From: Eledone cirrhosa
Taxonomy: Eukaryota
Direction: 5' to 3'
Assembly (NCBI GenBank): GCA_964016885.1
Contig: OZ024745.1
Span: 75,702,001 to 75,766,000 of the forward strand
Length of the DNA: 64,000 nucleotides
Shown piece by piece: positions 8,496 to 21,276 of the stretch. A program made the translations under genes and the position numbers. The stretch's first letter is position 1, and each line of letters begins with the position of its first letter. Below the pieces are notes generated by a model, which was given only the letters and a program-made list of their open reading frames with translations, was not told the origin of the DNA and did no database searches.

Positions 8496-9379
8496 TCTCT
8501 CTCTCGCTCTCTCTCTAGCATGCATCATAAACGAAATCAGACGACAGCCTGGCATGTAGAAGAAGCAGGAGAAAACCGCAACTTAATAGGATTATGTGTT
8601 GTCCTTAAACCGTAACACGTCCGAGTAAAGTACATGTCTCATTGCATAACACACCACATAATCCACGATAATCTGGTTTCTAATCTCATCAGTTCCCTTT
8701 TATTCTCGTCTGCTTGATTTTTCCGCAACATACCCTCTAACTCTTAGGTCATCTTGATTTCTTTGTCTAATCTTCCACTTTTCTTCTTTTTTGTTAATGC
8801 CCAGTCTTTATGCTCTCGTTGTATTCTTTTCATTAATAGCATATTGTTGACCACATCAATGTTTTAGTTAACACAAAAGCTTGTGAGAGGAAATAAAATC
8901 GGACAAACTGGCGAAGGGCCGAACAATATCGGAAAAGATAGGTAGCTTATCAGTATAGAATGGTGACGTTGAACTTGCGCATTTTTTAAAATGAAGGAAA
9001 TGCAGATTGTCTTAGATATATGTTATATTGCAGTAGTAGTTGTTAGTCCTACCTGATTGCCAGACATACGGACAAAGGATTTCTAGTCATGACTATCCCG
9101 TAATTTTTCCAGGTTTAGTGCATCCGATGTGTCCCTTTTTAAGAGAGTATGGTGTGGTTTAAGGGGGATTTGGCTGTCACTTCTAACAGATCGAGTGAAT
9201 CTTTTCGATTTCTATAAATGTGAAGATACAGCGAACCTTTTCTCGTCAGAACTAGCTATAACTTTTTACATCTTAGAGGTTATTGTTGTGGTTATCGTTT
9301 TTTAACCTCAAATAAAACATAAGTAATCCATGATAATAAGTATTCCAAACGTAACTCGGTTCAGTGTGGATACAAGCAC

Positions 9380-13699: not shown

Positions 13700-13927
13700 C
13701 CATCCATCTATCTATCTTTCTATCTATCTATATATATTTTTTTTTTTAAGTAAAAAAAAAAAGGTTTTCGCTCTACATGGCTGAATACAATAAATGTAAT
13801 CTGAGTTTTTCGAATATTAATAATAACATTCGATTCGTTTGCAATTATACAAACAAGCCTCATTTTTAAAGCCATGTCAGTAGAATGAACAACTTCATTC
13901 TTGCTCTTGTGTTGGCATGTGAACAGA

Positions 13928-13973
13928 ACTGCAGACACTATTGTTTCTGGGTATCATCCTTCATCAGTACTGC
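13928..13973 (-). ncRNA. Type I hammerhead ribozyme (family C left arm, degenerate stems)
   Basis: Minus strand: gcagta CTGATGA aggatgataccca GAAACA atag TGTC tgcagt. Confidence 0.6.
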
Positions 13974-14223
13974 TCACTGTTCACCTGCGAAAACTTTTTT
14001 ATTTTAATTTGAATGTGGCAAAGCCGGCCATTTATCGCTCGTATACTGTAAACTGACTGGCCAGTCTGCTGATATGCAAATCTGGCTGATCAGTGGATCT
14101 GCTAATATGCAGATCTGACTGATCAGCCGGTCTGATATTATGCAAATCAGGCCGATCAGTCACTGTGTATTTTTGAAAATAGCATATATTTTCACTAGCT
14201 CTGACAGTTGGCAAGTGAACAGT

Positions 14224-14273
14224 GGGCTGTACTGATGAAGGGTAATACCCAGAAACAATAGTGTCTGCAGTTC
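14224..14273 (+). ncRNA. Type I hammerhead ribozyme (family C right arm)
   Basis: GGGCTGTA CTGATGA a GGGT aat ACCC a GAAACA atag TGTC TGCAGTTC. Stem I is 8 bp with wobbles and extends further (gtgaaca/tgtttac, tggca/tgcca). Confidence 0.8.
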
Positions 14274-14409
14274 TGTTTACATGCCATTACAAGAGCAAGA
14301 ATGAAGTTGTTCATTCTACTGACATGGCTTTAAAATTGAGGCTTGTTTGCATAATTGCAAACGAATCGAATGTTATTATTATTATTCAAAAAACTCAGAT
14401 TACATTTAT

Positions 14410-14453
<44 letters not shown>

Positions 14454-16340: not shown

Positions 16341-16538
<198 letters not shown>

Positions 16539-16800
16539 ATTATTGCTGTTGTTTAACTCTAGGGGAGCTCTGACTCTATTTATGATCAAGAGCATTCAAA
16601 CTGTAACAATCTCATCCTTTTTTACTCCTTTGAAATTTTGTGTATCTAGGACATTATCTACTGCATCATTCCTGTGCTGAGACAGGAGATTTAGCTGCTA
16701 TTTCTAGTATATCATGTGACCTTAAGATTGAAATTTATTATACGGAAAATCTGCAGCCGCCATATACATATATATATATACATATAAATATATATATATA

Positions 16801-17340
16801 AATGGATTTAATGCTCTGAAATAGCGATATATATGTGAAGACAAACATAGAATATTCGAAAATATTCTGTATGTTTATAATAAACATTTTGAAGACCCAA
16901 TCGCTATAGAATAGAATACGTCACGTATTACAATTTGAGATTCTCGATAAAAGCAAGGGAAGTAACCTACGCGTTTCATTCTTATTAGAAATCATCAGGA
17001 TTACATATCCAATGCTTTTATCGAGAACGACACAGCTAGAGACTTATAGAATACTTAGCTGTGTACAGGAACTGGTTTGAAAGAGCGGTAGCCGGTCCGG
17101 CAGAAATTAGAATTTGGATTTAATGCTCTGAAATAGCGATATATATGTGAAGACAAACATAGAATATTCGAAAATATTCTGTATGTTTATAATAAACATT
17201 TTGAAGACCCAATCGCTATAGAATAGAATACGTCACGTATTACAATTTTTTTCTAATTTCTGCCGGACCGGCTACCGCTCTTTCAAACCAGTTCCTGTAC
17301 ACAGCTAAGTATTCTATAAGTCTCTAGCTGTGTCGTTCTC

Positions 17341-17344
<4 letters not shown>
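16801..17344. mobile_element. Family F retrozyme-like element: 1.4 tandem copies of a 312-bp monomer plus inverted arm
   Basis: 16803-16936 is identical to 17115-17248. 17251-17344 is the reverse complement of 17019-17112. (TA)n on both sides. Confidence 0.9.
16962..17004 (-). ncRNA. Minimal type I hammerhead ribozyme (family F)
   Basis: Minus strand: GTAATC CTGATGA tTTCT aata AGAAt GAAAC gc GTA GGTTAC. Palindromic ACGCGT stem III. 15-bp extension ttctcgataaaagca/tgcttttatcgagaa. Confidence 0.9.
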
Positions 17345-17888
<544 letters not shown>

Positions 17889-18398: not shown

Positions 18399-18482
<84 letters not shown>

Positions 18483-18519
18483 TCTGTGTGTATGCGTTTC
18501 TGTAGCCTAGTAGTTCGAC

Positions 18520-18606
18520 AAAAAGAAATTGATCAAATATTTACCAAAAAAGAGATTGATCAAATATTTACCAAAAAAGAGATTGATCAAATATTTACCA
18601 AAAAAA
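18520..18606. repeat. 27-bp tandem repeat x3
   Basis: caaaaaagagattgatcaaatatttac repeated. Confidence 0.9.
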
Positions 18607-20927: not shown

Positions 20928-21240
20928 TTTTCTATCTCTCTCTTACACACACACACACACACTTTCTCTCTCCCTCCCCATATATATATATATATACATA
21001 CATATTTATATATATATACATATATGTGGAAATATACATATATACATGCTTATATACATATATACCTACCTATACATATGTATATGTATATATATGTGTA
21101 TGCGTGTCAGTGTGTGTGTGTGTGTGTGTGTGTCAGTGTGTGTCTTTGTATGCGAAAAGTAAACGAAAAACAACATACGAAAACGATAAAGTACAGTGTA
21201 GATGTATATTAGTTTAACATTTGATATAGTAGGAAAATAG

Positions 21241-21276
21241 TTATAACGTTTCGGACGTTAGTCCTTCATCAGAAGA
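21241..21276 (-). ncRNA. Hammerhead core (family L), stem I degenerate
   Basis: Minus strand: tctt CTGATGA a GGAC taac GTCC GAAAC GTT ataa. Homologous copy at 45453-45488. Confidence 0.55.

Follow-up and report, generated by a model that had tools for sequence, protein, structure and literature searches.

The stretch of Eledone cirrhosa DNA analysed here (64,000 nt of contig OZ024745.1, referred to as the window; C5:75,702,001-75,766,000 in an assembly of 3.0 Gb) contains, at 16803-17344, an insertion made of a 312-nt unit with a hammerhead ribozyme motif, followed by an inverted piece of the same unit. Comparison with related loci across the genome indicated that this element is likely to be a recent, truncated, non-coding copy of a retrozyme, made where a (TA)n microsatellite was broken and both 3' ends primed reverse transcription on the hammerhead-sense RNA; the enzymes were probably those of Penelope-like elements (PLEs). 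It appears to be a copy of a new family within the known animal retrozymes. For the window alone the result is modest, this being an ordinary, truncated and slightly atypical copy; the loci of the family taken together provided strong genomic evidence for target-primed copying of one RNA species from both DNA ends.

Positions within the 312-nt unit are given as q, with q1 at position 16803 of the window. An earlier note on this DNA had described a 134-bp direct repeat with a period of 312, an identical inverted arm and an additional hairpin made of ACACAGCTA and TAGCTGTGT. All three are present: 16803-16936 and 17115-17248 are identical over 134 nt (100% identity, spacing 312), and 17251-17344 is the exact reverse complement of 17019-17112 (94 nt, 100%). 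The same note counted one hammerhead per monomer. The motif is indeed intact, but the locus as a whole holds a single hammerhead, located in its only complete unit, because the partial unit (q1-134) and the inverted arm (q217-310) both miss the ribozyme. No stop-to-stop frame longer than 60 codons was found inside the element, and the assignment to retrozymes is borne out at the sequence level by a type I hammerhead motif, a 312-bp unit with a G+C content of 34.6%, the lack of an open reading frame (ORF) and a self-paired RNA. Apart from the unit itself, the locus showed no terminal direct repeats; neither the PBS (primer-binding site) nor the PPT (polypurine tract) was searched for. A Pfam search with 12 ORFs of the window gave nothing relevant apart from one sub-threshold match to ZrgA, and no autonomous element was found in the window.

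Chance does not account for these features: across the genome, no fewer than 222 other stretches match the 312-nt unit at 97-100% identity (counted as matches from the 39 places scored out of 488 candidates). The 38-nt hammerhead core has 511 exact copies genome-wide (258 forward and 253 reverse), the 45-nt sequence at an arm end has 134 exact matches, and the reversed control gave 0 in both searches. The earlier note had taken a lack of read-through across the monomer junction in other copies as a sign against its reading; this junction is crossed hundreds of times, in arms ranging from less than one to 22 units. Haplotypes were defined by 13 diagnostic sites and at least 20 of them were found. 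The unit in the window matches the commonest haplotype, and at least 26 units elsewhere have exactly its sequence; given this identity, the window copy is recent, in line with what had been proposed. Collectively, the copy numbers and identities point to a very young dispersed family.

The architecture of the family was analysed in 119 loci: the window, 38 places scored via the unit search and 80 places found via the 45-nt end motif (100 of its 134 exact matches were listed; 18 of these were already in the set, 1 overlapped another, 80 were used and 1 was left out). Loci were called two-armed when each arm was at least 40 nt long and the arms were at most 120 nt apart. Ninety-seven of the 119 loci were two-armed and all 97 displayed the '+' (cDNA) arm first and the '-' arm second, the hammerhead-bearing strand facing outward on both sides in 97/97 insertions. 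No pair with a '-' arm followed by a '+' arm within 120 nt was found among the 119 loci; three such pairs, 176-552 nt apart, look like neighbouring insertions. About four of the other 22 loci are two-armed by eye, namely L082 (256 nt between arms), L112 and L148 (second arm shorter than 40 nt) and L019; most of the remaining loci are single 5'-truncated arms abutting (TA)n. At L019 (G000:C2:381047953-381051264), a run of about 200 N lies exactly where the arms should meet, palindromic loci being evidently hard to assemble. At L103 (G000:C2:283769756-283775756), two identical '+' arms of 964/966 nt stand 1.5 kb apart with the same flanks, through segmental duplication of a single-armed insertion.

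The insertions favour one type of target. Using a criterion of (TA)4 or more within 30 nt of the insertion end, (TA)n was found on both sides of 91 of the 97 two-armed insertions, on one side of 6 and on neither side of 0, against a background of about 9% of bases in the window and control stretches. The ends of the arms followed a simple rule: 89 of the 97 insertions combined a q1-type with a q25-type end, one had two q1 ends, none had two q25 ends and seven had one odd end. The 45-nt motif set was chosen by its q25-type end; in the 33 two-armed loci that were not chosen by end type, the corresponding numbers were 28, 1, 0 and 4. Either end type may form the left arm (43 vs 46). The window copy, with q1 and q217, is among the seven insertions with an odd end.

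The two types of end revealed how the arms start. Arms of the q1 type start within q310-312 in 81 of 100 cases, most commonly as ...atatatATT followed by TGGATTT. Arms of the q25 type have their apparent start in ATATATAT of the unit. Position 33, a G in the unit, is an A in 28/32 of the outermost q25-arm units of the unselected set vs 2/398 internal units of both sets; the first 10 or so bases therefore come from the microsatellite and templated synthesis starts at q35. Such target-derived bases at the q25-type ends are direct evidence of priming by the target DNA. With starts at about q311 and at q35, a 36-nt segment (q311-q34), hereafter the tail, is present at one end only. The arms are unequal without a useful trend in length, and more than half of them exceed one unit; in the sample chosen by the 45-nt q25 end, q25 arms had a median of 446 nt vs 316 nt (P 0.026), from which no inference was drawn. 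Snap-back self-priming of a single cDNA was rejected, because it would give equal arms with the same start, whereas the arms observed are unequal and start at different positions of the unit.

The centres of the insertions, where the two arms meet, are variable. Among the 97 insertions, 15 centre junctions were blunt, 55 had an overlap of 1-9 nt, 11 had an overlap of 12-35 nt and 16 contained 1-18 nt of filler; the 12-35 nt overlaps fall at internal palindromes of the unit (q41-74, q76-92 and q228-262) or at a near-repeat. Such variability is expected if two cDNAs of the same sense anneal at their 3' ends. We propose that a GIY-YIG endonuclease would cut (TA)n, after which AUAUAUAU in the RNA would pair with one of the DNA ends and copying would be primed from unit position 35, whereas the other end, paired over no more than 1-3 nt, would prime from position ~311. 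The two cDNAs would be extended to differing lengths, in many cases beyond a whole unit, along a single continuous template that was most likely a circle of unit length. Annealing of their 3' ends via 0-9 nt of microhomology or via an internal palindrome, and filling in, would complete the insertion. The inverted arm, left unexplained in the earlier note, would be the second, oppositely primed cDNA typical of PLE insertions.

The hammerhead core lies on the minus strand (CUGAUGA at 16998-16992, GAAA at 16977-16974, then GUA), with a predicted cut between 16968 and 16967. Helix I has 6 bp and extends into a longer stem, helix II is made of UUC/GAA resting on a U.U, and all that is left of helix III is a single A-U pair, which closes the palindrome CGCG. 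Folding of the hammerhead gave an energy of -19.5 kcal/mol (z -3.1). For the whole 312-nt RNA the fold gave a z of -5.6, none of 100 dinucleotide shuffles was as good and 58% of the circular fold was paired; the unit RNA is thus modelled as strongly self-paired. When two hammerheads were cofolded, the minimum-energy dimer was a domain-swapped duplex (-39.2 vs 2 x -18.3 kcal/mol), a result that is silent on a helix III dimer. According to passages of PMC7229834, newt satellite 2 and the axolotl HHR_Amex1 and HHR_Amex2 have a helix III of one base pair with a palindromic tetraloop, and are weak alone and cleave well as dimers; weak helix III and dimer-dependent cleavage also feature in a part of PMC7761336. 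Similarly to these ribozymes, the motif described here has a helix III A-U pair closing CGCG and a U.U at the base of helix II; outside the core, it is unrelated to them in sequence. With one, probably dimer-dependent, hammerhead, the window copy is predicted to be a dead end that cannot itself release unit-length RNA.

The commonest inner end of an arm was q167, 2 nt past the predicted cut (6/194 arms: L029, L031, L036, L091, L116 and L137), and the simulated probability of such a maximum was 0.014. Run-off on cleaved RNA could explain these ends only with 1-2 extra bases, and a pause before the CGCG of helix III fits equally.

The distribution of variants among units was informative about the template. 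Arms of the same insertion differed in 5/72 comparable pairs (5/827 site comparisons), and arms of different insertions differed in 2883/3329 pairs (86.6%). Within arms, 19/3548 unit-by-site calls were off the majority. Each insertion therefore carries one haplotype, common to both arms and all units, and template jumping among mixed linear monomers was rejected on this ground. At sites covered by at least 4 units (L054 excluded), the spectrum of variants within insertions comprised 210 singletons, 97 fixed and 27 intermediate variants, 8 of the latter coming from the duplicated arm in L103. Only 1/116 fixed variants was fixed in one arm yet absent from the other arm. Five loci (L033, L038, L041, L120 and L146) have private variants present in every unit of both arms; a one-unit bottleneck would therefore occur at each transposition. 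These patterns favour a template of one unit, in the simplest case a circle, that was copied over and over, and would not be explained by copying of a multi-unit transcript. The unit-length circle is most likely the template and the best-supported candidate. The earlier note had proposed retro-insertion from a 312-nt circle. The retro-insertion part gains from the target-derived primer bases and the 97/97 polarity, but the circle does not follow from the window, where 1.4 units indicate only that the template ran unbroken over the unit junction and the site of cleavage, as a circle or an uncleaved oligomer would.

PLEs are candidates for the enzymes involved. A first look at the genome gave 10,597 GIY-YIG candidates, all of the 150 scored passed the cut-off (150/150), and 9 of the 12 long ORFs tested carry RVT_1 followed by a C-terminal GIY-YIG domain. 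This abundant autonomous element, with reverse transcriptase (RT) then C-terminal GIY-YIG, was seen at L070, L071, L074, L077 and L078; its non-coding 3' region of about 1 kb contains CA-rich subrepeats in tandem, and (TA)n lies inside every subrepeat. Intact ORFs of this kind are present, among them a frame of 938 codons at L070. L074 is a two-armed autonomous RT-GIY-YIG copy, arranged head-to-head with (TA)n on both sides, in which one arm ends at ...CTTTATA and its partner is longer by about 63 nt. PLE insertions are described by Craig et al. (2021) in the relevant sections of PMC8557442 as partial tandems; on the 5' side there is often an inverted copy that is 5'-truncated, a tail of 30-40 bp is confined to one end, and the Naiads, which are PLEs, are described there as preferring (TA)n. 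The 312-nt family shares all four of these features (partial tandem, inverted copy, one-sided tail and (TA)n bias), and L074 has the same PLE layout. Unlike endonuclease-bearing PLEs, the 312-nt unit is non-coding and has no detected sequence in common with the sampled PLEs, whose ORFs have a C-terminal endonuclease and not the Naiad order. Overall, Penelope-like enzymes are the likely agents of insertion.

Several observations weigh against this interpretation. The hammerhead motif scored 20.6 bits against Rfam Hammerhead_HH9, for which the gathering score is 52 (E 0.017 in a search of 581 nt), and a search of the whole window with Rfam at the gathering threshold gave no match. A T>C change at unit position 166 turns the cleavage triplet GUA into GUG, which we take to be inactive. 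It was found in 21 units of 9 loci on two haplotype backgrounds; L088, L113, L136, L154, L101 and G000:C4:67978200-67979659 are listed with it. Every unit of L113 and of L136 carries GUG, as do 5/6 units of L088. Since several insertions have the variant fixed throughout, self-cleavage of every unit may be dispensable. The variant could represent a ribozyme that has lost activity but continues to be copied, a change that is tolerated, or a ligation junction that was misread.

The variants within insertions are not uniformly simple either. About a tenth of them are at intermediate frequency; they form contiguous blocks in L131 and L143, and are periodic or shared between arms in L021 (Y-N-N-N-Y), L098, L129 and L056. 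The 22-unit arm of L054 (G000:C2:381019900-381029899) has linked variants repeated in non-adjacent units, for example in pairs five units apart. The blocks, the periodic variants and the L054 pattern need post-insertion exchange or conversion, or oligomeric templates. We regard the L054 pattern as a sign of unequal exchange after insertion; the longest arrays would therefore not be pure products of reverse transcription. The window copy itself breaks the two-start rule, its right arm starting at q217: the second primer would have started at this unusual position beside TA, or a later deletion would have removed the canonical end. Finally, the comparison of tails with PLEs uses one autonomous copy (L074), and sequence shared with the unit was not found in the downstream regions of 12 PLEs, a sample from over 10,000 candidates, in which the best match spanned 24 nt (E 0.038).

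Part of this evidence can be accommodated by the same two-ended target priming on a different template, namely a linear oligomer transcribed by read-through from an existing array and left uncleaved, a reading that we consider rather unlikely overall. It would account for the periodic or arm-shared intermediate variants (L021, L098, L129 and L056) and for the predicted-inactive GUG lineage, which several insertions have fixed in each of their units. A weak helix III also predicts poor cleavage by a single motif (passages in PMC7229834 and PMC7761336), and the newt and axolotl repeats are reported in the former to yield multimeric RNAs too. Against such a transcript, the variant spectrum is bimodal, locus-private variants present in all units need a one-unit bottleneck that a multi-unit transcript does not give, only 6/194 arms end near the cleavage site, and many source loci are shorter than the arms they would have produced. 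The circle of one unit is thus retained as the preferred template.

The two-ended priming itself could have been carried out by a non-Penelope RT, for instance that of a long interspersed element (LINE) acting by twin priming, with the likeness to PLEs being convergent; this is unlikely. Twin priming of human L1 was reportedly described by Ostertag and Kazazian in 2001: both 3' ends of the target are said to prime cDNA on the element RNA, and the two cDNAs to join by microhomology, giving an inverted 5' part. The insertions analysed here resemble this scheme but differ from it in involving another enzyme family, lacking poly(A), having both starts fixed and having arms that often exceed one unit. 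The lack of any sequence common to the unit and the 12 sampled PLE 3' regions speaks for a non-Penelope enzyme, and in the passages of PMC7229834 on mobilisation, Cervera and de la Pena (2020) named PLEs as strong candidates without deciding between LINEs and PLEs. The arm ends showed neither poly(A) nor a tail of LINE type. The one-sided 36-nt tail, the inverted copy in about 80% of loci and the (TA)n targeting correspond to the PLE layout as given in parts of PMC8557442. This layout is present in an autonomous RT-GIY-YIG copy of the same genome, in which PLEs are extremely abundant, and vertebrate retrozymes have been linked to PLE pseudo-long terminal repeats (pseudo-LTRs) in passages of a preprint (bioRxiv 10.64898/2026.07.22.740005). 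We therefore retain PLE enzymes as the more plausible agents. 

A DNA-level origin is very improbable, whether from a satellite, from a foldback-type DNA transposon or from extrachromosomal DNA amplified by rolling circle and then re-integrated at fragile (TA)n. Tandem repeats in inverted arrays do look superficially like foldback elements, and post-insertion changes are seen in L103 (arm duplication), in L054, and in L131 and L143 (blocks). However, polarity relative to the ribozyme strand is absolute (97 vs 0) and the terminal bases come from the target, not from the unit. A foldback-type DNA transposon would have identical inverted termini and a structure preserved on moving; here one terminus has the 36-nt tail and the other lacks it, and arm lengths and centre differ at every locus, so the copies were made anew and not moved. 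That the inverted arms are assembly artefacts of long-read chimeras at palindromes, a point for which is the N run exactly at the palindrome centre of L019, is scarcely credible, as fold-back artefacts would give equal arms with identical ends and 97 independent loci display a rule-bound q1/q25 asymmetry, microhomology at the centre and unequal arms.

The family extends what has been described for metazoan non-LTR retrozymes. In the passages of PMC7229834 that define them, these have a type I hammerhead in short tandem repeats of ~150-450 bp, from dimers to multimers, with low G+C, no LTR, PBS or PPT, no ORF and strongly self-paired RNA. The family found here is similar, with its 312-bp unit containing a type I hammerhead, its low G+C, its lack of an ORF, its self-paired RNA and its coexistence with PLEs. 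It differs in its layout: the same passages describe plain tandem arrays, whereas most of the loci here are convergent arms in (TA)n with two fixed starts. RNA circles were demonstrated for metazoan non-LTR retrozymes, again in PMC7229834; for the 312-nt family a circle is proposed. The words 'inverted', 'microsatellite' and 'rolling' are absent from the text of Cervera and de la Pena (PMC7229834), and a full-text literature search combining retrozymes, Penelope-like and inverted did not bring up the two-armed layout for retrozymes in the passages it returned. Vertebrate retrozymes were described by Li, Clavereau and Pollet in 2026 as non-autonomous PLE derivatives, via pseudo-LTRs (passages of bioRxiv 10.64898/2026.07.22.740005). 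The claim of PLE dependence is the same as ours and the preprint assumes a rolling-circle route; its evidence is co-distribution and pseudo-LTR phylogeny in vertebrates, vs insertion footprints here. An inverted arm, a tail or a target site is not described in those preprint passages.

Mobilisation of retrozymes by PLEs via circular RNA was thus proposed in 2020 and supported by vertebrate phylogeny in 2026, and the portions of these texts that were searched contain no insertion footprints. The 312-nt family keeps such footprints almost undamaged: target-derived primer bases, two starts with one per arm, microhomology joins and one haplotype per insertion. These data constitute unusually clear genomic evidence of target-primed copying from both DNA ends; through the footprints, the proposal of mobilisation becomes a set of specific steps that can be tested, and the integration cycle of Penelope elements, itself poorly understood, becomes easier to approach. 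More tentatively, one small RNA circle might bridge both ends of a break made by Penelope enzymes, one end pairing with AUAUAUAU and the other starting 36 nt downstream, with the two reverse transcriptions following each other round the same molecule; the interval between the starts would then be the one-sided tail of PLEs generally, and their inverted copy would correspond to the second cDNA. If this were true, retrozyme loci would be a natural read-out of the Penelope integration mechanism, and the long-unexplained one-sided 'tail' would be accounted for.

Table 1 Features of the retrozyme insertion and its flanks in the window
Feature	Position	Strand	Remark
(AT)n target microsatellite, left flank	16762..16802		Tandem Repeats Finder row 16762-16800/16803
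Complete 312-nt unit q1-q312, cDNA sense	16803..17114	+	Arm starting at q1, the tail-bearing end type
'Tail' segment q1-q34	16803..16836	+	Present at one end only of family insertions
34-nt internal palindrome q41-74	16843..16876		Recurrent arm meeting site; 28-34 nt centre overlaps in L043, L055, L099
Type I hammerhead motif	16948..17013	-	Core CUGAUGA...GAAA...GUA intact
Hairpin ACACAGCTA (17030-17038) / TAGCTGTGT (17056-17064), q228-262	17030..17064		Paired in RNA folds; 35-nt centre overlap in L141
Partial second unit q1-134, closing the left arm	17115..17248	+	Left arm total 446 nt = 1.43 units
2-nt filler tt between arms	17249..17250		
Inverted right arm, q217-310 reverse-complemented, 94 nt	17251..17344	-	Outer end q217 non-canonical (TATC adjoining (TA)n)
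Right flank (AT)n microsatellite, ~545 bp	17345..17888		Tandem Repeats Finder row 17342-17888

Other hammerhead repeats were found in the same loci. The window contains a different, two-armed one at 13785-13991 / 14208-14414, with 207-nt arms that are 93% complementary, the ribozyme on the minus strand at the left and on the plus strand at the right, and TA-rich flanks; it appears to be an older insertion of the same type. Another hammerhead repeat with a two-armed layout is located at L078:8004-8204. Helices I and II covary across these other hammerhead families, and several have a palindromic helix III, ACUAGU, which suggests that the genome contains many dimer-dependent ribozyme repeats. 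Examples of a helix III reduced to ACUAGU are found at L142:710, L122:2658 and L051 (locus flanks). The window as a whole has 8 matches to CUGAUGA...GAAA...GUH vs 1.0 expected, including 21216-21272 (-) and 8648-8692 (-).

Simple repeats are dense around the element. They include (GTA)66 at 16341-16538, the ~545 bp (AT)n at 17342-17888, and further tracts at 18401-18491 and 18520-18605, among which are (TG)45 and a 27-bp tandem repeat.

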